This document shows positions 5,565-36,363 of a stretch of 64,000 nucleotides of DNA, piece after piece. The first letter of the stretch is position 1; every line of letters starts with the position of its first letter. The position numbers were made by a program, and so were the translations under genes. The stretch lies in sequence record MN850619.1; one strand, 5' to 3'. The notes under the pieces are model-generated. The model was not told where the DNA came from, did not search any database, and saw only the letters and a list, made by a program, of their open reading frames with translations. The DNA is from Escherichia phage finno.

Positions 5565-5568
5565 ATTT

Positions 5569-6075: not shown

Positions 6076-6154
6076 TGGCGGTTACGAAGGGATTTGAACC
6101 CTCATCATCTCCCGTGACAGGGGAGTATTTTAACCAAAATTAAACTACATAACC
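6076..6154 (-). tRNA. tRNA-Asp (anticodon GUC)
   Basis: T-arm AAGGG-ATTTGAA-CCCTC, perfect anticodon stem CTCCC/GGGAG, loop CUGUCAC. Confidence 0.8.
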
Positions 6155-6159
6155 TTTAT

Positions 6160-6247
6160 TGGTGTGCCGTGTAGGAGTCGAACCTACCGAGTCTCAATGA
6201 CAAGGGATTTACAGTCCCCACCGCTACCATCTACGGGATAACGACAC
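6160..6247 (-). tRNA. tRNA-Tyr (anticodon GUA), class II
   Basis: T-arm GTAGG-AGTCGAA-CCTAC, 15-nt variable arm, anticodon stem AGGGA/TCCCC, loop CUGUAAA. Confidence 0.75.
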
Positions 6248-6316
6248 ATTTAATTTCTATTCAGGCTAAGGACTTGCACCTTACAAATCGGTGAGCAATC
6301 GCTTCTCTCCTAAATT

Positions 6317-6393
6317 TGGCGGTTAGTCAGGGATTCGAACCCTGTGCCATTCGCTTAACAGGCGACCGCACATACCTTATGTGCTTCCTAACC
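6317..6393 (-). tRNA. tRNA-Asn (anticodon GUU)
   Basis: T-arm CAGGG-ATTCGAA-CCCTG, loop CUGUUAA. Confidence 0.75.
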
Positions 6394-6476
6394 ATGTTTA
6401 GTATTACCAGACCGTATCTTTCAATTTTTCCGCTAAAAATTTAATAAATATTGCTGTAAACGGTCTTCTGTAAATT

Positions 6477-6553
6477 TGGAGGCGGGTGCAGGAGTCGAAC
6501 CTGCCGATACCATGCTAATGAGACATGTGAGACGCCCTTTCTCTATACCCGCA
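6477..6553 (-). tRNA. Second tRNA with CAU anticodon (Met/fMet/Ile2 not distinguished)
   Basis: T-arm GCAGG-AGTCGAA-CCTGC, anticodon stem CATGC/ACATG, loop CUCAUUA; apparent U1-C72 mismatch. Confidence 0.6.
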
Positions 6554-6644
6554 ATTCTTAATGACCAGACCAAATCTCTTCTTTGTCCGATTTACCTTCA
6601 GATGAATAAGATTAAGTTTGCTGTAATTGGTCTTCTGTCAAAAC

Positions 6645-6722
6645 TGGCGTTCCAGAAGGGATTTGAACCCTCAGATATCCACTTTGAAAGAGTGGTGACT
6701 TTACCATTTTGTCTACTGGAAC
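6645..6722 (-). tRNA. tRNA-Glu (anticodon UUC)
   Basis: T-arm AAGGG-ATTTGAA-CCCTC, perfect acceptor GTTCCAG/CTGGAAC, perfect anticodon stem CCACT/AGTGG, loop CUUUCAA. Confidence 0.8.
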
Positions 6723-6729
6723 ATTAATT

Positions 6730-6806
6730 TGGTCTCTGTTGGAGGACTTGAACCTCCGGCCTTACCGCCCCAAACGGAACGCTCTACCAAGCTGAGCTAA
6801 ACAGAG
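6730..6806 (-). tRNA. tRNA-Pro (anticodon UGG)
   Basis: T-arm GGAGG-ACTTGAA-CCTCC, perfect acceptor and D-stem, loop UUUGGGG with G37. Confidence 0.8.
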
Positions 6807-8387: not shown

Positions 8388-8468
8388 ATTTTACTCTCTT
8401 CTCTCATTTGTTGTTTGATGTGACAGACTTTAGAGCAACTTTGTAGAGTCTGTCAACACCTTTTAAAA

Positions 8469-8840
8469 TTATTTTTTGAGAGTCGCTACAGCAGAGAACG
8501 TTGGTTTGTTATCTGTCTGTGGCTGACCACCATTATCAGGGGTTTTCTTAGTGTCTGCTGCAAGTGCTTTCATCTCACCTGCTGAGTGAGTAAAGATGGT
8601 TTTACCGACCTCAATCATACTCTTGATGGTTACGTCGTCTGTGTTTAACCCGAACTCTGCAAGCTTAGCAGCGTCCCTTGTAACAATCGCCTCAAACAGT
8701 TTTGCAGCAAACTCAGCAGAATTATCAATGGTCAGTTGAGCTTTTACAAGTGAGCTTTTGTTACGAGAGCCTTTTGGTCTTCCAGATGGGTTTCCAGATT
8801 GGCCTTTTTTAAACTGGCCTTTGTTTGTTCTGTTTTTCAT
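8469..8840 (-). CDS. Hypothetical protein with basic GNPSGRPKGSRNK motif (putative DNA-binding)
   Basis: 123 aa ORF; N-terminal KGQSGNPSGRPKG motif; last gene before the strand switch. Confidence 0.45.
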   Translation of the reverse strand: MKNRTNKGQFKKGQSGNPSGRPKGSRNKSSLVKAQLTIDNSAEFAAKLFEAIVTRDAAKLAEFGLNTDDVTIKSMIEVGKTIFTHSAGEMKALAADTKKTPDNGGQPQTDNKPTFSAVATLKK

Positions 8841-8954
8841 TGGTATGCCTCTTATAAGACCTCTTAAAAGGCTTTTAAGATAAAAGATAGATATCCAGAA
8901 AGATATCTGTTTAAATAGCCTTTTTAGAGGAACCTTTTAAGTTATCTTCTAAGT

Positions 8955-9050
8955 ATTTATAAGCCTACACCTTGTCAAGTACTTTGTCAACAACTTTTTA
9001 ACTTGCAATAGTTCTTGACTTGTTGTATGGATTACTGTACCATCTTACTT
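8955..9050. promoter_or_regulatory. Divergent promoter region with tandem TTGTCAA motif (CACCTTGTCAAGTACTTTGTCAAC)
   Basis: On the minus strand this reads TTGACA-N17-TAGGCT with a second TTGACA; on the plus strand TTGACT-N17-TACCAT sits upstream of the 9089 start; same 25-nt motif recurs at 56170-56195. Confidence 0.45.
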
Positions 9051-9088
9051 AAAGCTGTAGGTCTGCCTTGTTCTACAAAGGAGACTTA

Positions 9089-9250
9089 ATGAGAAAATCA
9101 AATAAACCGAAGAAAGGTAAGAATACCAATCACTGTAAGGAATCAAAAAGGGTAGAATTAATCTACTATTCATCCTCTGAAATTGGTCTGTACCTGTTCT
9201 TTCAAAATTACAGAAGACAAGAGGATTATCTATGTGTAGTTCCCAATTAG
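9089..9250 (+). CDS. Hypothetical small basic protein
   Basis: ORF track 9068..9250; start moved to the ATG preceded by a GGAGA RBS. Confidence 0.4.
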   Translation: MRKSNKPKKGKNTNHCKESKRVELIYYSSSEIGLYLFFQNYRRQEDYLCVVPN

Positions 9251-9465
9251 AAATCGCAGATATTATAGATTTATATCAAACTGCAAAGAGTCATGGCTAT
9301 ATAACCTCAATTGGAAAGAATAGTCACTATGATGCTTTGACTGGAATGTATTTCAGGGCAATGGCTCAATCTAGTGAACAACACTTAGTGGTTTCTTCCA
9401 GTGAGTTTACTTCGTTTCTCTATTGCAGCAAAATTATAAATCGCAGGAGAACTGAAAAATGTTAA
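9232..9465 (+). CDS. Hypothetical protein
   Basis: 77 aa ORF in the plus-strand operon, overlapping neighbours by a few nt. Confidence 0.4.
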   Translation: MCSSQLEIADIIDLYQTAKSHGYITSIGKNSHYDALTGMYFRAMAQSSEQHLVVSSSEFTSFLYCSKIINRRRTEKC

Positions 9466-10049
9466 CAGTAAGTTTTAATTACAATAGTGATGGCTCTGTA
9501 TCAATTAACTCACCATATGCAAATGACCTACTTAAAGAGCTAGTCAATCAGTGTGAGAGGGGTCTTCACTATGTTCAAAATTCTTTTAAACAGAAGACTA
9601 TTGCTAATAACTTGATGCGTGTAACAGTGACGGCATCAAATCCAAATTATGACTTTGATAGTGAAAGTCCGTACTCATTAGTTGCGCTTGGAGAGAGCAG
9701 CCAATTCAAACTTGTTTGCCACGACTCAGAAACATTCCTTAAGGTATTTTCCAACCTTATCCATAATAATAAGTACAGCTACGTTGATGGTAGTGTAAAC
9801 TTCTATCCAGCAAACTATACATGTTTGTTGACTGATAATATGAGAAAAAGTAAGCAAGAGCCTACAGAAATCTCATTTGATGTGAACTCTAGTCCAGACG
9901 CAGAAACAAGTAAGAACTTTGATATGAGTTATGCGTTGTCACTCAGTAAGAAATCCGAGTTCATTGATTATGTCAATGGATTTGGTTTTAAGTTTGATGA
10001 GAGTATGAATCTTAAAAAACTTAAGAACCTACTTAAGACCAAAGCTTAA
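9459..10049 (+). CDS. Hypothetical protein
   Basis: 196 aa ORF with start overlapping the upstream stop. Confidence 0.5.
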   Translation: MLTVSFNYNSDGSVSINSPYANDLLKELVNQCERGLHYVQNSFKQKTIANNLMRVTVTASNPNYDFDSESPYSLVALGESSQFKLVCHDSETFLKVFSNLIHNNKYSYVDGSVNFYPANYTCLLTDNMRKSKQEPTEISFDVNSSPDAETSKNFDMSYALSLSKKSEFIDYVNGFGFKFDESMNLKKLKNLLKTKA

Positions 10050-10096
10050 GTGTGAATAGGGGCTGATGCCCCTTTAACTATTTATAAGGATATTTA

Positions 10097-10468
10097 ATGA
10101 AAGCTAAGAGTGCAAAAGACTTTTATTGCTTCCTACAATCCTATATCAATTCCGTGCAAAATGGTGAAAGGTACAGCCTTAATGATGTTATCCCAACACC
10201 TTTGACATGGAGACTCAGCAAATGGCCTGAAGAAGATATTACACCAACAATCGAACAGCGCACCTACAAACCTGAAATCAATATTCCAGACTCTGAGAAT
10301 CTATTATATCCAATGTTCCATATTGTTGGTCTTGGAAGATTCCTTATGGATATCCAGTATGTAATTGGTAAAGGTTATAAGGTTAAAGGCATTGTTGTTG
10401 GTGATGTATCTCCACACCACAAAGGTTATTTTAGACTAAACGCACATTTAGAGGCTAAAAAGAAATGA
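10097..10468 (+). CDS. Hypothetical protein, paralog of the N-terminal module of the downstream Ig-like protein
   Basis: 123 aa; aligns by eye with residues 1-110 of the 10465..11598 product (shared FMDLQY motif). Confidence 0.55.
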   Translation: MKAKSAKDFYCFLQSYINSVQNGERYSLNDVIPTPLTWRLSKWPEEDITPTIEQRTYKPEINIPDSENLLYPMFHIVGLGRFLMDIQYVIGKGYKVKGIVVGDVSPHHKGYFRLNAHLEAKKK

Positions 10469-11598
10469 TTAAAGCAAAGACTTACCCAGACTTCAAAGAG
10501 TTTGTGAAGGGCTTCATTGCAAACGTAAAAGCTGGTAAGAGATATGATTTTAGAACATATCAAGAGGCTATTTTACCGCTTACCTACAGTTCGTATTGGC
10601 CTGAAGCTGATATTGCAGAAGTTGAGGAGTTTGACTACAAACCAGACTACAAAGTTCCATTTAGTGATGAGTTGCTTTACAGCATCGGTGCTCAAATGAG
10701 AACTTCTGACTTCTTCATGGACTTACAATATGCAATTATCAATGGTAAAGACGTTGATACAGTTTATTGTGAATGGCTGGCAAGAGTTAAACCATTCTCA
10801 ATGTTGAATGCTAAGTTGAAGGACGCTATCAAGCCACCATCAATTACTCAGCAACCAACCAATCAAACAGTAAATGAAGGTGGTACACTTACCCTAAGCA
10901 TTATTGCAACTAATGCCACTGGATATCAATGGAAAAAGGATGGTGAGGATATCACTAGCGCCACATCTGCAACCTACACAAAACAGTCTGTAGCACCTTC
11001 TGATGCTGGTTCATACACTTGTGTTGTATCTGGAGAGGCTGGGACAAGTGTTACCTCAGATGCGGCAACAGTCACTGTCAACGCACTACCTGTGATTACA
11101 CAACAACCTTCTAGCCAGACCATCAATGAGGGTGGAAACATCAACTTGGAAGTGACTGCAACAGGTGCAACAGGTTACCAATGGAAGAAAGATGGCTCTG
11201 ACATTCCTTCAGCTACAAATGCTACCTATAGCAAGTCTGGTGCGCTGCCAGCAGATGCAGGCTCATACACTTGCGTTGTAACAGGTGCGGGTGGTGCAGT
11301 GACATCTAATGCTGCTGTAGTAACTGTGAACGTACTTCCAGTAATTACTCAACAGCCAACCAATCAAGAAATCACTGAAGGTGAGACCTTAACGTTGAAT
11401 GTTGTGGCAACTGGTGCAACAGGCTACCAGTGGAAGAAAGGTGAGGAAGACATCCTCGATGCAACTACTGCAACTTACACCAAAGAAGGTGCAACCGCTG
11501 CTGATGCAGGAAGCTACACCTGTGTAGTTACTGGTGCAGGTGGCTCTGTCACATCTAACGCAGCAACAGTTACTGTTAACCCAGCAGGGGAGGCATAA
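10465..11598 (+). CDS. Ig-like repeat protein (three tandem Ig-like domains), possible virion decoration/adhesin
   Basis: 377 aa; three ~80-aa repeats each with ITQQP..N.GG.L.L...ATGATGYQWKKDG...AT...DAGSYTCVV.G..G.VTS.AA.VTVN. Confidence 0.6.
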   Translation: MIKAKTYPDFKEFVKGFIANVKAGKRYDFRTYQEAILPLTYSSYWPEADIAEVEEFDYKPDYKVPFSDELLYSIGAQMRTSDFFMDLQYAIINGKDVDTVYCEWLARVKPFSMLNAKLKDAIKPPSITQQPTNQTVNEGGTLTLSIIATNATGYQWKKDGEDITSATSATYTKQSVAPSDAGSYTCVVSGEAGTSVTSDAATVTVNALPVITQQPSSQTINEGGNINLEVTATGATGYQWKKDGSDIPSATNATYSKSGALPADAGSYTCVVTGAGGAVTSNAAVVTVNVLPVITQQPTNQEITEGETLTLNVVATGATGYQWKKGEEDILDATTATYTKEGATAADAGSYTCVVTGAGGSVTSNAATVTVNPAGEA

Positions 11599-12062
11599 TG
11601 CAACTCTCAAGAAAAGGCTTAGAAGCTATTAAGTTCTTTGAAGGTCTTAAGCTAGAGGCTTACGAAGATTCTGCTGGAATCCCTACAATTGGGTATGGGA
11701 CAATCCGTATTGCTGGTAAACCTGTTAAGATGGGTATGAGAATCACGGCTGAACAAGCTGAACAGTATCTTCTCGCAGATGTTGAAAAGTTCGTTGCAGC
11801 AGTGAACAAAGCCATCAAGGTTCCAACTTCTCAGAACGAGTTTGATGCACTTGTAAGTGAAACATACAACATTGGCATCATAGCTATGCAGGACTCTACA
11901 TTTATCAAGCGCCACAACGATGGTAATAAGGTCGGTTGTGCAGAAGCTATGCAATGGTGGAACAAGGTTACAGTCAAAGGTAAGAAGGTTACTTCAAACG
12001 GCCTGAAAAACAGACGTAGAATGGAAGCTGACATTTATCTTGACAGTGTATACCCAAAGTAA
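11598..12062 (+). CDS. Endolysin, GH24 lysozyme (lambda R / P22 gp19 type)
   Basis: 154 aa; EGLKLEAYEDSAGIPTIGYG...NEFDALVS..YNIG matches the GH24 phage lysozyme catalytic region. Confidence 0.8.
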   Translation: MQLSRKGLEAIKFFEGLKLEAYEDSAGIPTIGYGTIRIAGKPVKMGMRITAEQAEQYLLADVEKFVAAVNKAIKVPTSQNEFDALVSETYNIGIIAMQDSTFIKRHNDGNKVGCAEAMQWWNKVTVKGKKVTSNGLKNRRRMEADIYLDSVYPK

Positions 12063-12074
12063 TATCTTCATAGG

Positions 12075-12101
12075 CTCCTTCGGGAGCCTTTTTTATTTTC
12101 T
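12075..12101 (+). terminator. Rho-independent terminator (GGCTCCTTCGGGAGCC + T-run)
   Basis: Perfect GC hairpin with TTCG tetraloop followed by TTTTTTATTTT immediately after the endolysin stop. Confidence 0.7.
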
Positions 12102-12113
12102 AAGGAGAAAACT

Positions 12114-12512
12114 ATGAAACTTTGGGCTAGTGACTTTGGAACTTTTAAGTACACTCGTAATGGCTCGCTTGTACGTATTGTCGGAAACAATGTGGTTTCA
12201 AGAGGTGACAAGGTATATACACGGTTTACTGTAGAGCTTGTTGAGTTGTCACCTATTGAGTCTGTGAACAATGGCCTCTTCAAGTTTGAGACTTACAATG
12301 TTAATGAACATGGACAATTCAACCCTCTTGGTGAAAGTGGACTTGATATTATTTCAGAGCACCCATTGACAAAAGAGCAACTCGCAAGTTATTATAAAAC
12401 TGTTCTGGAAAGGCAGTTAGCAACACATGAACAAGAAGCTAACTATCATTTACAACATTGCGAAGCTTTAAGAGCAAAAATCGAACAAGCAGAGAGAGGT
12501 TTTTATGAATAA
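12114..12512 (+). CDS. Hypothetical protein
   Basis: 132 aa ORF with AAGGAGA RBS. Confidence 0.5.
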   Translation: MKLWASDFGTFKYTRNGSLVRIVGNNVVSRGDKVYTRFTVELVELSPIESVNNGLFKFETYNVNEHGQFNPLGESGLDIISEHPLTKEQLASYYKTVLERQLATHEQEANYHLQHCEALRAKIEQAERGFYE

Positions 12513-12900
12513 TATCAGTCAGATTAAAGTTAAAGTCGATGTTAGCCGTTACAGTGGAGATGAAGAATTAGACCTGCGAGATGCGATTCTCTATGAGAAG
12601 AATGGTAATCTTCATTTACATTTTGAAGACACAAACACATATCTACACAGATGTCGAGATGATGTAGATGGTTGTCCTGTTTTTGCTTGGTATAATTTAG
12701 AGTTACCTCTTTATGCAATCCACTATCCAGATGGTGGGGAAGACTGGACTACTCAATCAATCTTTGATGAGCTTAACGGTATTCCAGTTGAGCAAGAAGA
12801 GCAAGAACCCGTTGAACTTACCTTCACTTTTATCAAAGAAGAGAAAGTAGGTGACTTGTCAGTAACCGAAGCAATTCAAGTCTCACAGGTTATTCGTTAA
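12505..12900 (+). CDS. Hypothetical acidic protein
   Basis: 131 aa ORF, overlapping start/stop. Confidence 0.5.
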   Translation: MNNISQIKVKVDVSRYSGDEELDLRDAILYEKNGNLHLHFEDTNTYLHRCRDDVDGCPVFAWYNLELPLYAIHYPDGGEDWTTQSIFDELNGIPVEQEEQEPVELTFTFIKEEKVGDLSVTEAIQVSQVIR

Positions 12901-13193
12901 TGAGCAAAGTACAGGTTGTTTTCCCTATTTGTGACTTCTCACTAGAGCGTGAACTTGACCTGTACGAAGAAATTACTGACGAAATTATCTGGTCTGTTGT
13001 AGAAGAGGCTATCAAGAAACTATATGGTGGCCTCTTAAACCCATCAAGTAAAAAGCTCAATACTAAACAAGTAGCTGATACATACACTTCCTATGATGCC
13101 TACAACAAACCTTTTGAGAATACCTGCTTTGACCTTATGGTAGGCAATAACAAAGTCAACTATTTCTTCGTCAGAGAGTTTAACGATGAGTAA
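12900..13193 (+). CDS. Hypothetical protein
   Basis: 97 aa ORF, ATGA overlap with upstream stop. Confidence 0.45.
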   Translation: MSKVQVVFPICDFSLERELDLYEEITDEIIWSVVEEAIKKLYGGLLNPSSKKLNTKQVADTYTSYDAYNKPFENTCFDLMVGNNKVNYFFVREFNDE

Positions 13194-13530
13194 GCTCCAT
13201 GTCACAGTTTACAAAAACTTCGCAGATATCAAAGAGTCTTTAACAAATAAGCTTGACTTACAACGTAAAAGACTCTTTTTAATGTATGACATAGACAACT
13301 ACAACCATCCTAAAGAGTTTAACTACAAAGATGGTACAAAGGTCGTTGAATTTGAAGATTCTGTGACGGTGTATGTCAAATATGACTTACCAGCAAAGTA
13401 CATAGGGATGTTAGAGTATTACATATTCAAACATACAGGTATGCGTGGTGAAGCTGTCAAGATATCTTCTATAGAAGTTTTTGAGAAACCTAACACACAA
13501 CTTAAAAAGTATTTAATGAGGAAACTGTAA
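13186..13530 (+). CDS. Hypothetical protein
   Basis: 114 aa ORF. Confidence 0.45.
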   Translation: MSKLHVTVYKNFADIKESLTNKLDLQRKRLFLMYDIDNYNHPKEFNYKDGTKVVEFEDSVTVYVKYDLPAKYIGMLEYYIFKHTGMRGEAVKISSIEVFEKPNTQLKKYLMRKL

Positions 13531-14111
13531 TGTCCGAAGAGCAACAGGATATCATTCCACAAGTAACACTTGTACAACACTTTGGAAATATTGAAGGGTG
13601 TGTTGCACTTTTTCAACCGAGTATCAATTCCCCTGCAAAAGTTTGCAAGTTGACTATGAATGTTAATAACATTAGTGTCTGCCTTGTTGATGAAGTCCAG
13701 TACTTCAAGTTTAATGACAGAGAAGTTGATGCTGCACTTTTGAAGTATCGAGCTAGTCTCGAAAAAGATATTGACCACAAAGAACTTGTAACACTGTTTG
13801 GTGACCTTCACAAGCTTCTTGAAAAAGTTATGAAGCGCACATACTACATGAACAATGGCTCAATTATCACCACTTTGATTTCACCATGTATTTCAGAGCC
13901 AATTTTAACTGATGACGGTGGATACTACGTGGTAGCATCAGCAGACCCTGATTGGTGGATGAAGAACACAGCACTTAAGACGGTTATCGAGGCTATCCGT
14001 GAACATATCCCTTCATTCAGCCCGTGGAAAGGTAAAAGTGATGATTTTATCGCACTATTGAGTGAAGAGAGTAACAAGCGCAGTGCATTACTGCCTAAAA
14101 AATACTCTTGA
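13530..14111 (+). CDS. Hypothetical protein
   Basis: 193 aa ORF. Confidence 0.5.
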   Translation: MSEEQQDIIPQVTLVQHFGNIEGCVALFQPSINSPAKVCKLTMNVNNISVCLVDEVQYFKFNDREVDAALLKYRASLEKDIDHKELVTLFGDLHKLLEKVMKRTYYMNNGSIITTLISPCISEPILTDDGGYYVVASADPDWWMKNTALKTVIEAIREHIPSFSPWKGKSDDFIALLSEESNKRSALLPKKYS

Positions 14112-14183
14112 CCGAGTATACAAAACTGATTATGATGGGAGCTATCGAGAGGTAGTTCCCTTTTTAGTTTCTGGAGAATAGAT

Positions 14184-14729
14184 ATGGCTAAAGTGAAAGA
14201 ACACGATAAAATTATTTTGTATGTTAAGCAGAACCCTTCAAAGAGTGTTGAGGCTGTTGTAACACACATCTCACAAAATGGTACAGTTTATTTCCGACCA
14301 CTGAAGAACTTAGACTTTGACACAACACCAAACCACACATTCAGTACTTCTGCAAGACTGTGTGCAGGAACTGTATACTCAACTGCTGAGATTGATTCCT
14401 TATCTTTCACAGGTGCTTACAAAGACTTTATAGGGATTGCTTTAAAGGACTCTGAAGAATCTTTTAAATTTTTCATGGAGACTGATAAAGGTTGCTACAC
14501 ACATGTTATGCCAGTCTATAAGAAAGTTGACACAGAACTTACCAGTAAGTGCGAAGAGATTAGTAGTGACTTAATAGAACTTCAAGCATCTACTAAGAAT
14601 GCCATTTACATTATCGAGCGAGATTACTTAGAAGTTCTTTTTAGAGACATGTTAAAAGCTGGTTTTACTCCAAATGAAATTACAAAAGAAACTCAACGCC
14701 AGTTCAGAAATGCTATGGTGAAAGAATGA
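14184..14729 (+). CDS. Hypothetical protein
   Basis: 181 aa ORF. Confidence 0.5.
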   Translation: MAKVKEHDKIILYVKQNPSKSVEAVVTHISQNGTVYFRPLKNLDFDTTPNHTFSTSARLCAGTVYSTAEIDSLSFTGAYKDFIGIALKDSEESFKFFMETDKGCYTHVMPVYKKVDTELTSKCEEISSDLIELQASTKNAIYIIERDYLEVLFRDMLKAGFTPNEITKETQRQFRNAMVKE

Positions 14730-14944
14730 AAAAACTAACTACAGTTGAAGATTACTACAAACTTTCCCTGTTAGAACAGTATCGTAGAAGCCAGAATATC
14801 AGAAAATGCTATGGTAAGCACGCTGAAGGTGACTTTTACCGTTGCTATGATGCAGATTTAAAAGGCGTAACACCTAGAGGGAAAGTCCTGCAAAGACTTG
14901 TTGACCTTGAGTGGAACAAACGATTGAGAGGGGTTGGAAAATGA
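14726..14944 (+). CDS. Hypothetical small protein
   Basis: 72 aa ORF, overlapping start. Confidence 0.4.
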   Translation: MKKLTTVEDYYKLSLLEQYRRSQNIRKCYGKHAEGDFYRCYDADLKGVTPRGKVLQRLVDLEWNKRLRGVGK

Positions 14945-15444
14945 TTTACGAAGAAAGATACAAGATAGATTTTCAGGATACTTGCCATCATACTTCTTTA
15001 AGAGTGACGAAACCAAATGGAGAGGTTGGTATCATAGCACATTTTGGTGGTGATTATTGGTATGGTACAGGTTGCTTTGAAGGCTACACACAAGAATACC
15101 TGAAAGCTTTCTACAGAGACTTTGCAAATGACTACAACAGAGTTGTTGACGAAAAGAATAAGTGTATTAAGCATGAACACCATGCCAGAGGTTGCCTAAG
15201 TATTGTTATGGTACTGGCGTTCTTCTTAGCAATGCTACTGGCAGTATCAGCAATTAGCTGCATAGCTCAAGATTTGACCATTACACAGATTACTACAAAG
15301 ATACATGATATCTGGTACTTGTATGCTGTTCCTTTAGCTGGTATTATCATCTCACTAATAAGGTTCAGAGTTCATAAGAAACGACTTAAGGACTCTGAGG
15401 TTAAACTTGAAGAGGTAAGTAAAGAATGCAACCTACAATTATAG
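14911..15444 (+). CDS. Hypothetical protein with two C-terminal transmembrane helices
   Basis: 177 aa; hydrophobic segments LSIVMVLAFFLAMLLAVSAISCIAQ and YLYAVPLAGIIISLI. Confidence 0.5.
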   Translation: MEQTIERGWKMIYEERYKIDFQDTCHHTSLRVTKPNGEVGIIAHFGGDYWYGTGCFEGYTQEYLKAFYRDFANDYNRVVDEKNKCIKHEHHARGCLSIVMVLAFFLAMLLAVSAISCIAQDLTITQITTKIHDIWYLYAVPLAGIIISLIRFRVHKKRLKDSEVKLEEVSKECNLQL

Positions 15445-15520
15445 CTGTATGTGTTCGTTTTGCAATCGCTGAAATGATTAACAAGGCAATCTTAAAAGAT
15501 GCCTATGGAGAGACTAAGTA

Positions 15521-15745
15521 ATGATTAAGACACCTGTACCAATTTTTGGATTTCCTTCTATAGAAGAGTTTAAAGTTTATCTTGACAAAAACTTCTACAA
15601 TGAGCAGCCTGTTACTTTGCTGAAGAGTGACTTATCAGAGCTTCTTGATATGGTTATCAAGTCAACCCCTGAGAAGGAACCTGAACAGAAAGCTGAGAAG
15701 AAGACTAGTAAGAAATCCGATAAGAAGACTGAAAAGTCTGAGTAA
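15521..15745 (+). CDS. Hypothetical small protein with lysine/glutamate-rich tail
   Basis: 74 aa ORF. Confidence 0.4.
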   Translation: MIKTPVPIFGFPSIEEFKVYLDKNFYNEQPVTLLKSDLSELLDMVIKSTPEKEPEQKAEKKTSKKSDKKTEKSE

Positions 15746-15797
15746 TAGCTTAGGGGTTACTTGATAGCCCCTTTGTATAAACTTAGAAGGTAGCGAA

Positions 15798-16262
15798 ATG
15801 AAAATTAAAGAAGTCGTTCAAAAAGCAATGCTTGACAACTCAACTAAAGATGAAATGTACAAAGAGATTTGTGATAAGTTGAATTGTTCAAGACATGCTG
15901 CTAAGGCTCTTGTACATTGTTTTATCTGGGAATGCTCAGAGGCTTATATGCAATATGTAGCTTTTGAAAGTTCTCACTTGCTAGGTGATGTAGAAGCTGG
16001 TGATAAGCTAAAAGAGCCTGAGATGAAAACAGTCCCTAGAGTCGGTAATACATACCCTCTTAAAGATTTCAAGACTGGAAAGATTGTTGCAAAAGGTGTA
16101 GTAGAATCTGTCTATCATGATGGTAAATACTTACTTAAAATATTTGAGTATGACAGCCACTATACGCACTTATGTGGGATTACATTCTTAGTAACAGAAG
16201 AAGACCTTATTAAGAACAACAGCAACAAGTTTGCAGTACCAGCCTACCAAGTTTTACGATAA
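15798..16262 (+). CDS. Hypothetical protein
   Basis: 154 aa ORF. Confidence 0.5.
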   Translation: MKIKEVVQKAMLDNSTKDEMYKEICDKLNCSRHAAKALVHCFIWECSEAYMQYVAFESSHLLGDVEAGDKLKEPEMKTVPRVGNTYPLKDFKTGKIVAKGVVESVYHDGKYLLKIFEYDSHYTHLCGITFLVTEEDLIKNNSNKFAVPAYQVLR

Positions 16263-22875: not shown

Positions 22876-23165
22876 GGTGTTTCCTCTTTACGTGATACTT
22901 TGCCACTTACAGTTATCTCATAAGATTCTAATAAATCGCTTTTAGACTTTACAGGGATTTTAAAAGTATCATCATAAATATTGACCTGCAATACAGGTTT
23001 TTTATACTCCCTGCAACTATTCCATAAGCAAATCACTACACGACGGCCTTTTATTTTTCCGTGTAACCATTCCATAACATCATGGCTATTCCTTGATGTC
23101 TCAATAAAATCAATTTTGTTAAGTAACTTGCTTAGATTTTCACGGACTTTATTTGATAATTTCAT
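22869..23165 (-). CDS. Hypothetical protein, translationally coupled to the downstream gene
   Basis: 98 aa ORF overlapping the next start by 7 nt. Confidence 0.5.
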   Translation of the reverse strand: MKLSNKVRENLSKLLNKIDFIETSRNSHDVMEWLHGKIKGRRVVICLWNSCREYKKPVLQVNIYDDTFKIPVKSKSDLLESYEITVSGKVSRKEETPC

Positions 23166-23256
23166 TTTAGAGTCTCCTAGTTTAAGGGTTAATTTGATAA
23201 AGCTCTTTATCTGGGGCTATCATATCAGCTTGTTAGCCCCGTGTAAAGAGGTCTAT
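23166..23256 (-). promoter_or_regulatory. Repeated promoter/leader element, type 2 variant
   Basis: AAAGCTCTTTATCTGGGGCTATCATATCAGCTTGTTAGCCCCGTGTAAAGAGG. Confidence 0.45.
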
Positions 23257-23769
23257 TTAGTTCTTAAAGATATTCATCACTGAATCTTTTAATGCTTCCA
23301 AACGTTCTAATACTTCAGCCTCTGCGTCTGAATTGCTCACCTCTTCTTTTAATCTATCTTCTAAATCCTCACCGTCACTATAGCACCAATCAAAGGCATA
23401 TCCTAGATAAAAACTCTCTAAAACCGTGTTGTCATTTGCATCGATAACTTTCGCGGCAAGGTTGTATTCTGAAGCTTCTAAATCTCTTTCTAGTTCTTTC
23501 TGTAAGCTGATGTAAGCCTGTTTTGATGGGTTTTCCCGGCCTTGTTTTGCATAGTCACTAGAAAGCTGCTTAAGGCTATAATTTAAAGGGATTGCATATT
23601 TAAAATCGTTACGCTGACAGTTAGGGTTTTTAATAGTCACGCCGCCTTGATGGTCATCTGTAAACTTCCAATTATCAAGATTATGGCTTGCTTCGTAGCA
23701 ATTTACCGCTTCATAGATAATGGTGAATTTTTCTTTTACAACTTCAAAGGTAGCGTCTACAGTTTTCAT
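23257..23769 (-). CDS. Hypothetical acidic protein
   Basis: 170 aa ORF. Confidence 0.55.
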   Translation of the reverse strand: MKTVDATFEVVKEKFTIIYEAVNCYEASHNLDNWKFTDDHQGGVTIKNPNCQRNDFKYAIPLNYSLKQLSSDYAKQGRENPSKQAYISLQKELERDLEASEYNLAAKVIDANDNTVLESFYLGYAFDWCYSDGEDLEDRLKEEVSNSDAEAEVLERLEALKDSVMNIFKN

Positions 23770-23854
23770 TTTTGAATCTCCAATTTAGGATTTAGTGGTA
23801 AAGCTCTTTATCTGGGGCTTAAGATATCAACTTTTAAGCCCCTTGTAAAGTACT
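23770..23854 (-). promoter_or_regulatory. Repeated promoter/leader element, type 2
   Basis: Near-identical to the 21116-21200 copy. Confidence 0.5.
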
Positions 23855-24148
23855 TTATTTGTTATTTTTCAGCTTTGCATAACTTCTCATTGTACGAATG
23901 GGGGATGTTAAGGCTATGCGTCTAATATATGCCTTTTTCGTGTATACATTTGTCTTCCCGATAGTGCTTACACATGTAAAAAGGTTTATCGGTGAATTTT
24001 TTAGCTTCAACTGTTTATCAGCCTTCACGCCCCACCTTACAGCAGATTGTTTTCCGTTGTCAACCACTTTCCCGCATAACTTTTTAGCCATAGCGCGAGC
24101 GTCATCACGAGTTTTTGCAGTAATTACAACGTTTTTGATAATAGCCAT
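23855..24148 (-). CDS. Hypothetical basic protein
   Basis: ORF track 23855..24163; start trimmed to MAIIKN after the repeat/RBS. Confidence 0.5.
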   Translation of the reverse strand: MAIIKNVVITAKTRDDARAMAKKLCGKVVDNGKQSAVRWGVKADKQLKLKNSPINLFTCVSTIGKTNVYTKKAYIRRIALTSPIRTMRSYAKLKNNK

Positions 24149-24234
24149 TTTTAAGTTCTCCAATTTAGGATTTAGTGGTAAAGCTCTTTATCTGGGGCTT
24201 ACTTTATCGAACTATAAGCCCCTTGTAAAGTACT
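24149..24234 (-). promoter_or_regulatory. Repeated promoter/leader element, type 2
   Basis: Minus-sense TTTACA-aggggcttatagttcga-TAAAGT with palindromic GGGGCTTA..TAAGCCCC. Confidence 0.5.
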
Positions 24235-24618
24235 TTATTCGTTAATTTTGAAGATTGTTACATAACCATCGCTCCCGATGATTTGCGATACCCCAGCTTT
24301 TTCTACTTTATAGCCCATATTTTCAAGATGATAAACAGCATCATCATAACCATATGCGCCACCCTGATAACGTCGCTTATCGCATTTTATCAGGTTTTTA
24401 CCACGTCCAGCAAGTGCATTCAGTACAGCTTTTTCACTTGATAGCGTACCATCTAACATGGTTGCCGTGTAATGGTTGATTCTATTCCCGTTTACATCAT
24501 ACTTAAAATTGAATGCGTGAACAACAATAATGTTGCCTTTAAAATTCTCATCAAGTGACTTCTCCAGTACTTTGCGAAAGTTGTCTTTGTTGATGAATTT
24601 CGGTGCACGATAAGCCAT
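24235..24618 (-). CDS. Hypothetical protein
   Basis: 127 aa ORF. Confidence 0.55.
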   Translation of the reverse strand: MAYRAPKFINKDNFRKVLEKSLDENFKGNIIVVHAFNFKYDVNGNRINHYTATMLDGTLSSEKAVLNALAGRGKNLIKCDKRRYQGGAYGYDDAVYHLENMGYKVEKAGVSQIIGSDGYVTIFKINE

Positions 24619-24704
24619 TTTTGAATCTCCTAGTTTAAGGTTAGTTAGTAAAGCTCTTTATCTGGGGCTTACTTTATCGAACTATAAGCCCCTTGTAAAG
24701 TACT
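24619..24704 (-). promoter_or_regulatory. Repeated promoter/leader element, type 2
   Basis: Near-identical to the 24149-24234 copy. Confidence 0.5.
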
Positions 24705-24911
24705 TTATTTATCGTAGTAATAAATTGCTGTCTGTCTTGTAAACTTCTTAGTATTTCTTGTCAGATAGCAATTAGAATTAATAGCCGTTTCTACATAGTT
24801 GCAATAGTCAGCTTCTGATATTCTGGACCACACGCCACAGATTTGCATGTAAAAACGTTTTGCCTTTGTGTTAATGTTAGTTGTAACCATCAATTCGCGA
24901 CTGTACAGCAT
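24705..24911 (-). CDS. Hypothetical small Cys-containing protein (first gene of the array)
   Basis: 68 aa ORF. Confidence 0.5.
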   Translation of the reverse strand: MLYSRELMVTTNINTKAKRFYMQICGVWSRISEADYCNYVETAINSNCYLTRNTKKFTRQTAIYYYDK

Positions 24912-25317
24912 TTTTAGATTCTCCAGTTTAGGAAGTGGGCTTGATTGCCCGTCTGATGCAAATATTAGATAACCATACTCAAAGAGTCAATAGAAATTTT
25001 AAAAATATTTTTTTTTTTTTGCAAAATTGTAATGAAACGGGTGCGCGCGACTACCACAAAACAGAACTACAATCAAGAATTATTTTTCAATCCGCTACAA
25101 ATTTTTCTGTTGACTTTTATTTCCAGATGTGGTAGCCTTGTGAGAAATAGCGACATCCCCACCTACACCCACCTACCTGCACAATTCTAAAATGATTTTT
25201 CTTGCCCGACCTGATTTTTCTCTGCACGTTTTGAAAATGATTTTTCTATCCGGCGATGAGATTTTTTGGGATATCTGTACAGACCCCTCCAGATACCTGC
25301 ACAAATTGAAAATGAAA
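24912..25317 (-). promoter_or_regulatory. Upstream control region of the small-gene array (16-nt poly-T tract, direct GAAAATGATTTTTCT repeats)
   Basis: About 400 nt without ORFs; T16 at ~25005-25020; two copies of GAAAATGATTTTTCT plus a related GAAAATGAAAAAGG. Confidence 0.4.
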
Positions 25318-25372
25318 AAGGCCGCCTTACCTTAAATTTTTCAATGGGTTAGGCAGCCTTCTTAGATGATTT
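25318..25372 (-). terminator. Putative terminator after the macro-domain gene (imperfect 12-bp stem + T-run)
   Basis: Minus-sense GGCTGCCTAACC...GGTAAGGCGGCC followed by TTTTTCATTTTC. Confidence 0.4.
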
Positions 25373-25393
25373 GTAGATACTGTGAAGTACTAA

Positions 25394-26173
25394 TCAGCTT
25401 ATGAATTTGAACTTTTTAGAATACATCAAGTAGTGAACTTCATCCTGATTTGTTGTGTAGATGTACGCTGCTGGGTAGTTATCAAAGAACACCCCTTCAT
25501 ATCTTCCAAACGGGTCAACTGGGAACATTTCACTGTTACACATACCCATCTCACTAACCAGAGGGTAACTAACCTCAACCTTGCCATCAACAAGCTGATA
25601 GAGGGTAACTTGATTAGTCTTCCCGTCACTTAGCACGACACCATCATAGAATTGTGGTGCTGAGGTAGCATACTTAGGGGTAACTACACTTGCCATTGCT
25701 TCATCATAGACGTATAGGTACACATCAACGTTATACATAACACTATTAATGAGGCTTTTCACAGCTTGTGCATCTAAACCACCTATACCTGCCCCAATCA
25801 TGGGTAAACCAATCTTACGAATGTTGTGCAGCCAGCAAAATTTACGGAGTTTTTCTAGTGACTCCACTAAGTATCGGTATGATGCACACTTCCCAACATC
25901 CAACTGTGTATATAGGTTAAAAATGTAACCATACTCCGTTCGAGCATGTGACACCTCACCAACCATCTGGTATCCGATATCATGAGCACTGTAGCCAAAC
26001 TTTTTATGGAATTTCCGGTCAGCTTCTTCAGCTTTTGGGAAAATCTTAGCAATTTTTTGAGCGATTCCAGCACCCATGAGGTTACGACAGTTGCAACCAT
26101 GAGCAATTAACTCAATATCTGTGTTTTTGAAGGCAGCCAGTAAGTTACCTTTCACAACTTTTACAATACCCAT
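25394..26173 (-). CDS. Macro-domain protein (ADP-ribose binding/processing), with C-terminal extension of unknown function
   Basis: 259 aa; ELIAHGCNCRNLMGAGIAQKIAKIFP and IGLPMIGAGIGGLD resemble the two macro-domain glycine-rich motifs. Confidence 0.5.
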   Translation of the reverse strand: MGIVKVVKGNLLAAFKNTDIELIAHGCNCRNLMGAGIAQKIAKIFPKAEEADRKFHKKFGYSAHDIGYQMVGEVSHARTEYGYIFNLYTQLDVGKCASYRYLVESLEKLRKFCWLHNIRKIGLPMIGAGIGGLDAQAVKSLINSVMYNVDVYLYVYDEAMASVVTPKYATSAPQFYDGVVLSDGKTNQVTLYQLVDGKVEVSYPLVSEMGMCNSEMFPVDPFGRYEGVFFDNYPAAYIYTTNQDEVHYLMYSKKFKFIS

Positions 26174-26374
26174 TTAACATCTCTCCCAAGATTCTTTATC
26201 TTCTGAAGGTTTTACACGTTGCCCCTCATGGTCTACCCAGATGCACCCACAACCTTCACAGATTACTGGCATTGCATAGCCAGCTTTAAAGTCATCTTCA
26301 GTGATAAGACCTTTTAAGTCACCTGTATCACGTCCGAACATTTCGATAGAACAGTCTTTACAGAAGTCAGCCAT
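26174..26374 (-). CDS. Hypothetical small Cys-rich (zinc-ribbon-like) protein
   Basis: Start trimmed to MADFCKDCS; CxxC...CEGCGC. Confidence 0.4.
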   Translation of the reverse strand: MADFCKDCSIEMFGRDTGDLKGLITEDDFKAGYAMPVICEGCGCIWVDHEGQRVKPSEDKESWERC

Positions 26375-33654: not shown

Positions 33655-35436
33655 TTAAAGCTGCTTGTCAATATTATTTCGAATATCACCAAGAGTTGTG
33701 TAACCGAACTGCTCAGAGTCACTAAAGACTAAACGTAAAGCACAAGCTGGGTGGTCAAGTACATCTGCAAAACTCTGGAATCCATAGCCATCTACAGCTT
33801 TCAGCTTATCACCATCCCACATAGGTGCTACACCACCAAAGGCAGATTTCTTAACACCACTATCTGTTTTAGGGTCTTTTGCAAGCATAATCTCTTTACC
33901 ACCAATGCTTGCAAGAGTTGCTTTGACAGCAAATGCAAAGGTGTCACGAGTCATGTACTGGTAAGTGTAAGAACCTACGCCAAACACCACGTTAGAGCTT
34001 GCAAAACCCATTTCATACAGACGCTTCAGGATTTCGTTTGCACGTTCCAGTGTGATAGAGTCACCATAGATAAGGCCGATATGCTCGTCCAGTACCTTAA
34101 ATCCTTTAGAGTTAATAGTTCCCCCAAAGATGTTGTACAGTGTCTTAATAGCTCCATCAATCTCAGCTACAGGACGTGTTACAACGTTTGCAGAGCCAAC
34201 CATATAAGCATTTTTCAACATCACTGTATCAGCAACTTCAAAGTCTTCTCGGTCAACAACCATTTCGTAGCCTTCTGACAGTAGCCATCCAGCAATACCA
34301 TAGCTGATGTTTTCAAGCTTCATGTTCAGAACAGCATTCAGCATTGTGTCACTGGCTTCCAGCTTGCTTAGGTGCTCGTAATAAGCCTTTTTAGCACACT
34401 CTAAGTGGATTGCTTTATAACCTGTGACAATATGTACAGGGTCTCCAGAGTCAGGACGAATTACCAGTTTACCGTCACGTTCCATAATTTCTTTACGAAG
34501 TGCTGGTAAGATTTCTGACACAGTTCTCCAGAAGTTATAAGTGTCTGAAACAATACTTGCAATACCAGTTGGGTAAGTTTCTGTTAAGAAACGACGGAAG
34601 GTTTGTAACTCACCTTTAAATCGTCTTTCTTCTTCAACCAACTCGTTACCACCTTCCCAAGCAATGTTTGCACACATTACAGAGTGTTCAGTGGCTGGTA
34701 CAGAGCTTCCAATATCAGAGATTGGATAGGTCTGCCCATAGATACGTTTAGCCGTGTATACAGCAGGGAAGCTATCAGTCCCTTTAAAGCTGGTTAAGTG
34801 TCCTACAGCGTTGAATGCGTCATCAGTAAAGCCGGACATACCACGCATAGCAAAGTCATGGCACTGATAAGGTAAATGCAAGTCGTTGTCGCAAGTGAGG
34901 TCAGCCCACTTCTTACAGATACGTTTGTAGTGCAATGCAATAGTTGCAATGGTGCAAGCCTTCCAAATCTCAGCAGAGAAAGCGTCTTCTAGATAACCTG
35001 CTACCCAATGGAAACCTGAAACAGTGTTCTGGAAGACAATCATTGGAACACGCATAGGAACAACTGTACCTTCTTCTACAGCGTATACTTCAACTGGTAG
35101 ATAGCCTAAATCGTGAAGTGCTTCCCAATGCTCTCGACCGATAGCATCTTTACCCAGAACACCATTCATGACTTCTAAGATTTCGTCAACTGCTCCTTTT
35201 TTATCACGTTCAAAGAAAGTGGCGTTCCAGTGGTCTATCAAGTAATCTTTAACAAAACGTTGAATACCAAAAGCTACTACACCATCAATTGCTAAGGGGC
35301 TGTTAAACCATTTGTCGCTACGTGGTGTCAGGTTGAACATCAAGTAATCTGTTGCACTGGGGTATTGGTAAACATGGCCAGATTTGTAAGCGTCCGCGTT
35401 TAAACCTGCTGGTACTGCATAAAGTGATTTAGTCAT
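33655..35436 (-). CDS. nadV: Nicotinamide phosphoribosyltransferase family protein (NadV/NAMPT-like; possibly the Namat-type nicotinamide ADPR transferase of a NAD+ reconstitution pathway)
   Basis: 593 aa; NADAYKSGH, VPATEHSVM, VSDTYN, IRPDSGDP, GDSI and FGVGSYTYQYMTRDT match conserved NAMPT motifs; ~100-aa insertion relative to canonical NAMPT. Confidence 0.8.
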   Translation of the reverse strand: MTKSLYAVPAGLNADAYKSGHVYQYPSATDYLMFNLTPRSDKWFNSPLAIDGVVAFGIQRFVKDYLIDHWNATFFERDKKGAVDEILEVMNGVLGKDAIGREHWEALHDLGYLPVEVYAVEEGTVVPMRVPMIVFQNTVSGFHWVAGYLEDAFSAEIWKACTIATIALHYKRICKKWADLTCDNDLHLPYQCHDFAMRGMSGFTDDAFNAVGHLTSFKGTDSFPAVYTAKRIYGQTYPISDIGSSVPATEHSVMCANIAWEGGNELVEEERRFKGELQTFRRFLTETYPTGIASIVSDTYNFWRTVSEILPALRKEIMERDGKLVIRPDSGDPVHIVTGYKAIHLECAKKAYYEHLSKLEASDTMLNAVLNMKLENISYGIAGWLLSEGYEMVVDREDFEVADTVMLKNAYMVGSANVVTRPVAEIDGAIKTLYNIFGGTINSKGFKVLDEHIGLIYGDSITLERANEILKRLYEMGFASSNVVFGVGSYTYQYMTRDTFAFAVKATLASIGGKEIMLAKDPKTDSGVKKSAFGGVAPMWDGDKLKAVDGYGFQSFADVLDHPACALRLVFSDSEQFGYTTLGDIRNNIDKQL

Positions 35437-35481: not shown

Positions 35482-36363
35482 TCAATCAATGGTTGCTACA
35501 GTAACTTGGGCGTAATGTGTTAAGCCACGGTCTTTAGCTTCACCTAAAGAGTTTGTAGTGTAGATATGGTCAATACCATTGTCAAGTAAGTTTTCAACAC
35601 CTTTAGAGAAAATACCATGAGTTACATAGAGTTCCACACGTTTTGCACCTGCTTCACGGAGATGTTTCGCTGCTTCTATGAAGGTTCGACCACCATCACA
35701 GATATCATCCAGAATCATGACGGTTTTATCTGTCAAATCAGCATCGTCAAGGATTCGCATACCAGTGATTTCTCCCGTCTTAAGATTGCGCACTTTAGAC
35801 ATTGTGATGTATGGTTTATCCACCTCTTTAGCAGTCTCTGCAATCTTCTTAGCAGCACCTGCATCTGGGGCTACTAAGTAATCAATTAGAGGGTCATTTG
35901 CATAGTGAACTGCAATTTCCTTTTGAGGAATACTCTGGAAGCAGTTAAACAGGTTATCTGGTACATAGCTGTGAGGGTCAACTGCACAGACTGCATCAAA
36001 ACCCATTGCATTAACCTGTTGTGCAAACACTTTCAAAGCTGCTGCATCACCTTTAAACATGTGACGGTCGTAACGTGCATTTGGCAAATAGTAAAAGATA
36101 GCAGTCTTCATAGCAAACTTATGGGGTACTAAATCGTCAATTGCTTCTTTAGCAAGTGCCACAGCAAATAATGTGTCTTTGTCATAACCCTTTACAATCA
36201 TAATCACGTTGTTGATGGATGATGCTGCATAAGCAGTAAAATCAACAAGCTCTTGTGAAAAGTGTCCACCAATCTCACCAGAAGGGAACTGGATGATGTT
36301 AAACTCTTCTTCATGAGACCCTTTTGTCGGTGAATGAATTATAACACGAATAGATGTTTTCAT
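35482..36363 (-). CDS. prs: Ribose-phosphate pyrophosphokinase (PRPP synthetase) family protein (Prs-like; possibly the Adps-type ADPR-pyrophosphate synthetase)
   Basis: Start trimmed to the ATG at 36361-36363 (track start is TTG); FPSGE, YLPNARYDR, VDPHS and ILDDICDGGRT match Prs motifs. Confidence 0.75.
   Translation of the reverse strand: MKTSIRVIIHSPTKGSHEEEFNIIQFPSGEIGGHFSQELVDFTAYAASSINNVIMIVKGYDKDTLFAVALAKEAIDDLVPHKFAMKTAIFYYLPNARYDRHMFKGDAAALKVFAQQVNAMGFDAVCAVDPHSYVPDNLFNCFQSIPQKEIAVHYANDPLIDYLVAPDAGAAKKIAETAKEVDKPYITMSKVRNLKTGEITGMRILDDADLTDKTVMILDDICDGGRTFIEAAKHLREAGAKRVELYVTHGIFSKGVENLLDNGIDHIYTTNSLGEAKDRGLTHYAQVTVATID

Follow-up and report, generated by a model that had tools for sequence, protein, structure and literature searches.

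The toxin of the DarTG2 defence system, DarT2, ADP-ribosylates thymidines of DNA, and tk.4 is the single gene of phage T4 that is required on DarTG2 hosts, a clean knockout being sensitised (HIDEN-SEQ preprint, 10.1101/2025.11.20.689424). Its product Tk.4 was named AdfM (anti-DarT factor Macrodomain), and removal of ADP-ribose from DNA was proposed for it without biochemistry (10.1101/2025.11.20.689424). A second defence, aRES (RES-domain), converts NAD+ into nicotinamide and ADP-ribose (ADPR)-1''-phosphate (ADPR-1''-P), a product that the phage NARP1 pathway is unable to use (Osterman et al., bioRxiv 10.64898/2026.01.28.702374). The macro protein Adpp is encoded in 15% of NARP1 operons; in purified form, that of Vibrio phage Gary removes the phosphate from ADPR-1''-P, and the phage requires it to overcome aRES; an H24A mutant of Adpp was constructed and is listed in the supplement (10.64898/2026.01.28.702374). 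Here we analysed a 64,000-nucleotide stretch of Escherichia phage finno (MN850619.1; hereafter the window), which by megablast is a Felixounavirus (e.g. Salmonella phage Si3, 93.6%), and in it the macro gene at 25394..26173 on the minus strand. It is a complete open reading frame (ORF) of 259 aa plus stop with an ATG start, listed under PHROG 335, and it encodes a two-domain macro protein. We propose that this protein is a counter-defence C1'' ADP-ribosyl hydrolase, most likely reversing the DNA modification made by DarT2 and maybe also or instead feeding NARP1, a reading that we hold with belief and doubt in about equal parts. Its broader core, namely membership in PHROG 335 combined with a counter-defence role as an ADP-ribosyl C1'' hydrolase, is very probably correct.

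The PHROG 335 profile matches the finno protein with E=5e-85 over residues 1–258 and T4 Tk.4 with E=1e-65. T4 Tk.4 (gene at L002:5923-6390) is 33% identical to the finno protein across the whole macrodomain (BLASTP, E=9e-23), and the motifs HGCNC, NLYTQ and IGAGIG are identical in both. Like the finno macro gene, tk.4 comes from a lytic enterobacterial myovirus and was once annotated as 'phosphatase'. With 155 aa, Tk.4 consists of one domain, whereas the finno protein adds a C-terminal domain of ~95 aa and an insertion of ~13 residues after helix 2. In Ceto, a near-identical relative of Gary, the macro gene (gp176, L007:4001-4477, the orthologue of Gary Adpp) is located between Adps and Namat, the two NARP1 genes. 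The Ceto Adpp orthologue is 35% identical to T4 Tk.4 (E=8e-22) and 30% identical to the finno protein (E=1e-14), and therefore T4-type AdfM and Adpp constitute one family. The family signature H-x-x-N ... N-x-[YH]-x-Q ... G-x-G-x-x-G is common to Tk.4 and Adpp and is present in the finno protein. The motif subtype differs, with HGCNC/NLYTQ in the finno protein versus HQCNC/NVYGQ in Adpp, N-x-Y-x-Q being common to both. Adpp, too, consists of one domain and has no counterpart of the finno C-terminal domain. In the literature, no paper was found naming both T4-type AdfM and Adpp, nor any Felixounavirus macrodomain.

Homologues of the macro gene were found in 2784 phage records, mostly T4-like, and the nearest single-domain relatives are not adjacent to NARP1. 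Two proteins that are NARP1-adjacent, those of PAK_P1 and phiAbaA1, are 38% and 34% identical to the finno protein, compared with 33% for Tk.4, and phiAbaA1 carries the T4-type motif despite its position. Two candidate discriminators between AdfM-like and Adpp-like members were rejected: the profile of PDB sequence matches, since Gary Adpp yields essentially the same list, and the net charge of the macrodomain, which was uninformative as to whether the substrate is DNA or a small molecule. Single-domain members were also observed on two further contigs. In a 102-kb metagenomic phage contig (L012:5001-7073), the member P0027 is located between DNA_pol_A and a DnaB_C-like gene, with a Tad2-like (anti-Thoeris sponge) gene just downstream. 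In an 87-kb contig (L014:5001-9820), a reverse-transcriptase (RVT_1) gene and one for an 875-aa HATPase_c protein come within 1 kb after the member P0033, a pair that is unusual for a phage-like contig.

The macrodomain occupies residues 1–160 (25694..26173, minus strand) and was assigned to the Tk.4/Adpp family, within the TARG1/DarG/SCO6735 class, using Pfam, DarG hidden Markov models (HMMs), AlphaFold2 (AF2) and Foldseek. The original prediction, made from the letters of the window, had called a macro domain with both glycine-rich signatures, and this call stands. Pfam Macro (PF01661) matches residues 25–140 with 28.9 bits against a gathering cut-off of 22 (E=1.2e-6), and the two signatures are MGAGIA and IGAGIGG. 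A search against macro families had been suggested with MacroD, Poa1p and PARG-like profiles in mind; the Macro match is clear, and the subfamily is neither MacroD nor PARG-like but a His/Gln-type member of the above class. The AF2 model, computed from a 34-sequence alignment without the T4 sequence, has a pLDDT of 92.1 and a pTM of 0.88. Its best Foldseek match in the PDB is the TaqDarG macrodomain (E=5e-11, target TM 0.81–0.84), followed by TARG1, MtbDarG and Poa1p; target TM values of 0.8–0.87 were obtained to DarG and TARG1 structures, ADP-ribose (ADPr) complexes among them. The model thus predicts a three-layer α/β/α macro fold with a mixed six-stranded sheet; an ADP-ribose cleft formed by two glycine-rich loops is predicted from the fold matches and the conservation of the loops. 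By sequence, the best PDB matches are TARG1 (E=5e-8) and TaqDarG (E=6e-7), which improve to 1e-16 and ~1e-15 with the family profile. DarG models are the best-scoring curated ones (NCBIfam E=2.2e-15, PADLOC E=2.9e-16), and they cover the macro half of DarG only.

Three elements make up the putative active site. The first, H25-G-C-N28-C-R-N-L-M-G-A-G-I-A38 (26060..26101, minus strand), was identified from the alignments and includes the first Gly-rich loop, M33-G-A-G-I-A38. His25 aligns with His24 of Adpp and with the His of TARG1, and is opposite Asn19 of DarG; Asn28 aligns with DarG N22. The second, N86-L-Y-T-Q90 (25904..25918, minus strand), places Gln90 at the position of the catalytic Lys, opposite TARG1 K84 and DarG K80, in a profile alignment to TARG1 and in a MAFFT alignment with DarG, TARG1 and PhiKZ AdfM. 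In DarG, the N22A mutant is impaired, and K80A inactivates TaqDarG. The third is the second Gly-rich, diphosphate-binding loop, I126-G-A-G-I-G-G132 (25778..25798, minus strand), whose columns are nearly invariant and which aligns with DarG G117–G121. The residues of DarG that contact ADPr are largely kept (GNLL, N28, T89 and the G127–G131 loop), and H25, N28, Q90 and G127–G132 are invariant or nearly so in alignments of 23 and 34 sequences.

The macrodomains of DarG (T. aquaticus, 5M31/5M3E; M. tuberculosis, 5M3I) are the closest solved folds, but an orthologue of DarG was rejected, the full-length equivalog NCBIfam NF048014 scoring 56.8 bits against a cut-off of 250. The DarG catalytic lysine (K80, in the FPTK motif) was not found in the finno protein, where Gln90 takes its place. 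DarG possesses a DarT-binding C-terminal domain and an adjacent darT; the finno macro gene is without both, and in its relatives no DarT is annotated in the neighbourhood, which holds small early genes, spanins and polynucleotide kinase (PNK). Neighbour-joining (300 bootstraps) groups DarG of Taq and Mtb with PhiKZ gp104 in a clade of 100% bootstrap support, and the finno protein falls outside it. No supported clade unites the finno protein, T4 Tk.4 and the NARP1-adjacent macro proteins despite their common His/Asn/Gln signature, the deep branches being unresolved. PhiKZ gp104 was independently named AdfM in a Cell Reports paper and de-ADP-ribosylates DNA in vitro. It is 19% identical to the finno protein, with the equivalent of its Asn23 present as N28. 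Two phage macrodomains that are not orthologous now share the name AdfM: the DarG-like, Lys-type PhiKZ gp104 and the His/Gln-type T4 Tk.4.

A Gln at the position of the catalytic Lys is found in two members of the same TARG1/DarG ('ALC1-like') class, SCO6735 (Streptomyces coelicolor, PDB 5E3B) and BT_1257 (PDB 2FG1). SCO6735 hydrolyses thymidine-linked ADPr-DNA with Gln85 at this position, and Q85A abolishes the activity; a Gln there is thus not a sign of inactivity. The equivalence of Gln90 with SCO6735 Gln85 is transitive, running through the TARG1 and DarG alignments, and SCO6735 is a bacterial single-domain protein distant in sequence from the finno protein (profile E=3.5e-11). By analogy, SCO6735 may serve as the mechanistic model, with a water-mediated reaction positioned by Gln. 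TARG1/OARD1 (human, PDB 4J5S), the top PDB sequence match, shares with Poa1p and the finno protein the His of H-x-x-[NS], while its Lys84/Asp125 dyad is absent from the finno protein, the equivalents being Gln90 and Gly131. Yeast Poa1p (PDB 6LFQ), the archetype of ADPR-1''-P phosphatases, gives a weak sequence match. Both TARG1 and Poa1p are eukaryotic housekeeping enzymes.

Residues 161–259 (25397..25693, minus strand) comprise a helix, a linker and a β-rich domain restricted to Ounavirinae-type macro proteins. This part had been left unassigned, as it is here, though its length was put at ~120 aa and is ~95–100 aa (residues ~160–259). A short helix (158–164) leads into the linker S-x-P173-x-x-[FY]-D-G178, which is the most conserved element of the C-terminal part. 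The structure prediction proposed for this domain was run: the domain (residues ~165–259) folds confidently into six strands and one helix both in the full-length AF2 model and alone (pLDDT 84.5), and it is predicted to be compact and to pack rigidly on the macrodomain. It was seen only fused to a PHROG 335-type macrodomain, in Ounavirinae-type genomes with rIIB-PNKP-...-macro synteny. An HMM of 15 C-terminal domains found no relative outside the macro fusion among 1.84 billion representative proteins; its weak multi-stretch matches to PQQ β-propeller repeats were judged to be β-hairpin noise. A word-indexed search with the domain alone returned one fragment only, Foldseek against BFVD returned the SUSP2 orthologue only, and Pfam at E<=10 gave nothing consistent. 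The idea that the domain is an acidic mimic of single-stranded DNA, like the C-terminal domain of DarG, was rejected as a general property, as the isoelectric point is 4.7 for the finno allele and up to 9.4 for others.

Through a comparison with Bas63, in which the positional orthologue of the finno macro gene is bas63_0095 ('putative phosphatase'), it was found that the ORF together with its terminator forms a divergent allelic cassette (25200..26165, no strand assigned; blastn and sliding identity). In a global alignment scanned in 60-nt windows, DNA identity to Bas63 is 37–73% across ORF and terminator, against 92–100% up to ~25200 and from 26160, and the upstream boundary falls at the macro start codon. 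The macro protein is 41% identical to its Bas63 counterpart in a backbone in which Namat is 99% identical. Among 50,697 phage records, 12 contain the finno allele at >=90% identity, and most Felixounaviruses carry alleles ~50% identical in the macro domain. This is a gene-precise allelic replacement between otherwise near-identical phages. The pattern is compatible with arms-race pressure, though no proof of it, and the divergence is more in keeping with a gene at the interface to the host than with a housekeeping function in metabolism. The labels given to the macro gene in relatives vary among 'phosphatase', 'Poa1p_like Macro domain' and 'hypothetical', and the gene goes unmentioned in the main text of PhageMaP, a study of gene essentiality in Bas63.

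The window also encodes NARP1. Namat, the nicotinamide ADPR-transferase (33655..35436, minus strand; NAMPT-like, Pfam NAPRTase and NAMPT_N), is 99% identical to Bas63 gp80, and Adps, the Prs-like ADPR pyrophosphokinase (35482..36363, minus strand, with the mechanically called ORF running to 36387; Pfam Pribosyltran and Pribosyl_synth), is 80% identical to gp79. It was in the gp79-gp80 operon of Bas63 that NARP1 was first found and then validated, and the finno NAD+ genes are therefore this known system. Adps differs from gp79 mainly in its N-terminal half, which makes it the second anti-defence gene here with a mosaic patch. Adps and Namat, both present in the finno genome alongside the macro gene, are possible functional partners of it. 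They are located upstream at 7.5–10 kb, ~15 genes away (in Bas63, genes 79–80 relative to gene 95), and rIIA/rIIB, lysis and PNK genes lie in between. By its authors' definition, NARP1-AP (Adps-Adpp-Namat) has the macro gene within ±2 genes of Adps/Namat; the finno macro gene lies beyond this distance and is not in the NARP1 operon. The suggestion that the macro gene complements NAD+ reconstitution genes 8 kb away is thus borne out as to precedent, Adpp being an extension of NARP1, and as to the genes, which are real and 7.5–10 kb away; they do not share an operon with it, and they are the already characterised NARP1 rather than candidates. LPML1, a divergent genome of the Ounavirinae, likewise has NARP1 and a macro gene on one strand. 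Such co-occurrence was rejected as a discriminator, as it is explained by whole-genome synteny. This genome, OK283618 'Listeria phage LPML1', is classified in Ounavirinae and possesses rIIA/rIIB-PNKP-macro-ocr synteny and NARP1-like genes as in enterobacterial Felix-O1-like phages; its Listeria host label looks doubtful.

We infer that the macrodomain, through its His25/Asn28/Gln90 site, would hydrolyse the C1'' bond at the distal ribose of ADP-ribose. The main role of the finno protein would then be to strip the ADP-ribose put by host DarT2 on thymidines of single-stranded phage DNA, so that replication proceeds. A possible second role would be to convert ADPR-1''-P made by aRES into ADPR for the phage's NARP1, and the C-terminal domain would confer targeting or specificity. 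The first role is chemically plausible since SCO6735 exhibits a Gln-type mechanism, and the second is possible since Adpp is in the same family and finno carries NARP1; a dual role is chemically reasonable because in both reactions the bond that is broken lies at C1'' in the distal ribose. Judged by analogy, an anti-DarT2 activity may be real or not with nearly equal probability, an ADPR-1''-P phosphatase (Adpp) activity remains a tentative assignment just short of evenly balanced, and the presence of both in the one protein is unlikely. As the principal role, anti-DarT2 action is somewhat more likely, with Adpp as its main and non-exclusive rival. In favour of an AdfM-like role are the T4 motif subtype, the DarG models as best curated match with fitting contact residues, a family that is mostly T4-like, and nearest single-domain relatives away from NARP1. 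In favour of a dual role are Gary Adpp in the same family, the Adpp His24 kept as His25, and NARP1 in the window. The general idea of the original prediction, that the phage opposes host immunity with an enzyme for ADP-ribose derivatives, was right, in that homologues are tied to counter-defence. Its more specific proposal, reversal of ADP-ribosylation by host toxins, has a precedent in the requirement of T4 for Tk.4 against DarTG2.

Several points weigh against this reading. The evidence on Tk.4 is genetic, and no phage member of the His/Gln type is known to de-ADP-ribosylate DNA; the phage DNA-ADPr hydrolase that is biochemically proven, PhiKZ AdfM, belongs by its sequence to a different, DarG-like, Lys-type clade. 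The finno protein is about as close to NARP1-adjacent proteins as to Tk.4, and at 30–38% identity its substrate specificity may differ from that of either characterised homologue. The data are compatible with both an AdfM-like and an Adpp-like role, either of which would be carried over to the finno protein from homologues. The part given to the C-terminal domain, targeting or specificity, is pure inference, and the cassette exchange could be neutral mosaicism.

The strongest alternative is that the sole job of the protein is that of an Adpp in trans, i.e. a hidden NARP1-AP, dephosphorylating aRES-made ADPR-1''-P to ADPR that the phage's own Adps and Namat turn into NAD+. We consider this somewhat unlikely. 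The same family contains a purified, active Adpp from Gary and the Adps-macro-Namat operon of Ceto; the finno protein is 30% identical to Ceto Adpp and 38% to the NARP1-adjacent PAK_P1 protein, and it keeps both the catalytic His24 (as His25) and N-x-Y-x-Q. Moreover, the window holds a NARP1 whose Namat is nearly identical to gp80 of the validated Bas63 pathway, the macro gene of divergent LPML1 lies on one strand with NARP1, and aRES homologues are listed for Escherichia and Salmonella (Table S2, 10.64898/2026.01.28.702374). However, the macro gene is ~15 genes from NARP1, outside the ±2-gene limit, with rIIA/rIIB, lysis and PNK genes intervening, and most members of the family have no NARP1 nearby, T4 included. 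T4 is not known to encode NARP1 at all. In addition, it is hard to see why small-molecule salvage would call for an extra domain peculiar to one lineage, or why the macro protein would be only 41% identical to that of Bas63 against 99% for Namat.

It is improbable that the substrate is another ADP-ribose conjugate, such as ADP-ribosylated proteins or RNA of host or phage (e.g. from ADP-ribosyltransferase (ART) toxins acting on mRNA/tRNA), O-acetyl-ADPR (OAADPR), or C1''-linked immune signals, among them the cyclic ADPRs (cADPR) 2'cADPR and 3'cADPR, and His-ADPR. TARG1/OARD1, the top PDB sequence matches (E=5e-8), act on protein-Glu-ADPr and OAADPR, and macro domains are promiscuous at C1''. 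The phage glycosidase RyDEP, of another fold, cleaves cADPR signals and feeds NARP1, so that such a niche exists, and one relative adjoins a Tad2-like anti-Thoeris gene. Nevertheless, no family member is known to have such an activity, the Lys84/Asp125 dyad of TARG1 is replaced by Gln90 and Gly131, and the two published functions of the family already explain its distribution. The processing of ADPR-derived immune signals, which the original prediction had also entertained, finds no footing here, as nothing links the family to cyclic-ADPR signal processing.

Still less probable, to a degree that makes it a very long shot, is a Poa1p-like housekeeping role in RNA repair, in which the protein would clear the ADPR-1''-P arising from 2'-phosphotransferase-dependent RNA ligation, together with the phage polynucleotide kinase 2 kb upstream. 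The annotations 'phosphatase' and 'Poa1p_like' would agree with it, as would Poa1p as a structural neighbour (target TM 0.77–0.79) and the rIIB-PNKP-...-macro synteny kept in distant relatives. However, the annotated neighbourhood showed neither Tpt1/KptA nor an RNA ligase, spanins and ~6 small genes separate PNK from the macro gene, Poa1p is matched weakly in sequence and over no more than the N-terminal 58 residues (E=9e-5), and cassette-like divergence is atypical of housekeeping genes. Finally, a non-catalytic binder or sponge that sequesters ADPR-containing molecules or shields modified DNA, suggested by the replacement of the catalytic Lys (K84/K80) by Q90 and by one annotation as 'high-affinity ADP-ribose binding module', is scarcely credible given that the corresponding Gln is essential to the catalysis of SCO6735, that Gary Adpp with the same Gln is an active enzyme, and that His25, Asn28 and Gln90 are invariant or nearly so across the family.

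Returning to the proposed counter-defence hydrolase, the tie of the family to counter-defence was already known, and what is new here is the added domain, the cassette behaviour and the unification of AdfM and Adpp. Two independent discoveries of 2025–26, T4 AdfM (anti-DarTG2) and Adpp (anti-aRES), are thereby joined in one His/Gln macrodomain family, which makes bifunctionality directly testable and cautions against carrying either name over by homology alone. NARP1-AP may also be undercounted: Felixounaviruses including Bas63 hold an unlinked member of the family, and a criterion of operon adjacency would miss such members. With its orphan C-terminal domain and gene-sized cassette, the locus is a likely hotspot of interaction with the host, and since the genus is widely used in biocontrol and therapy against Salmonella and E. 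coli, this bears on the prediction of host range on strains encoding DarTG2 or aRES. A wider proposal, which we regard as quite doubtful, would have a single His/Asn/Gln family beat two mechanistically unrelated immune systems by cleaving both the thymine-linked ADP-ribose from DarT2 and the 1''-phosphate from aRES, with a newly acquired, hitherto unseen C-terminal fold in Ounavirinae recognising a variable host or phage macromolecule (DarT2, aRES or replisome) and the cassettes being the footprint of an arms race.

As for expression, the macro gene had been predicted to have its own terminator, and RNA folding agrees. An intrinsic-terminator-like hairpin with a U tract was found 31 nt past the macro stop (25305..25363, minus strand). 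The hairpin itself (25363..25315) has a 13-bp stem with an internal sub-hairpin and a folding free energy (dG) of -28 kcal/mol (z=-4.08; no equally stable fold among 200 shuffles). It was overlooked by a simple terminator scan because of its long loop, and Rfam gives only a sub-threshold ctRNA match to it. Given this terminator 3' of its stop codon, the macro gene is the closing cistron in its early/middle minus-strand operon. On the 5' side, a Shine-Dalgarno-like GGGAGAG lies 7 nt upstream of the ATG in the junction sequence (26181..26187, minus strand), and the stop codon (26174-26176) of an upstream ORF abuts the macro ATG (TAAATG). Because of this direct contact, the macro gene looks translationally coupled to the upstream ORF, which encodes 66 aa with a zinc-ribbon-like CxxC...CxxC pattern (26174-26374, minus strand). 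This small ORF is kept in Bas63 and the relative L009, and unrelated small ORFs replace it in more distant relatives; it was rejected as a conserved coupled partner, its conservation being limited to close relatives.

From the macro terminator, an intergenic region of 480 nt (24912-25393) extends to the next small gene and contains the direct repeats ATTGTGCAGGTA and GAAAAATCATTTT and an A13 run, as well as sigma70-like sites at 25025-24996 and 24990-24961. It is 88–100% conserved with Bas63, whose annotation places two small plus-strand ORFs in it, and no Rfam match above threshold was found in it. Further downstream of the macro gene, ~95-bp repeated elements separate small minus-strand genes at ~23160-23260, 23764-23869, 24144-24239 and 24613-24711. 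At least two of these elements hold the promoter-like TTTACA-17-TAAAGT, and they look like reiterated promoter/terminator units of a 'small-gene array'. Elsewhere in the window, ARAGORN located a cluster of 25 tRNA genes at 1822-6806 on the minus strand, and the sign of the GC skew flips at ~8000-16000 and ~56000, where the coding strand switches between genome modules.

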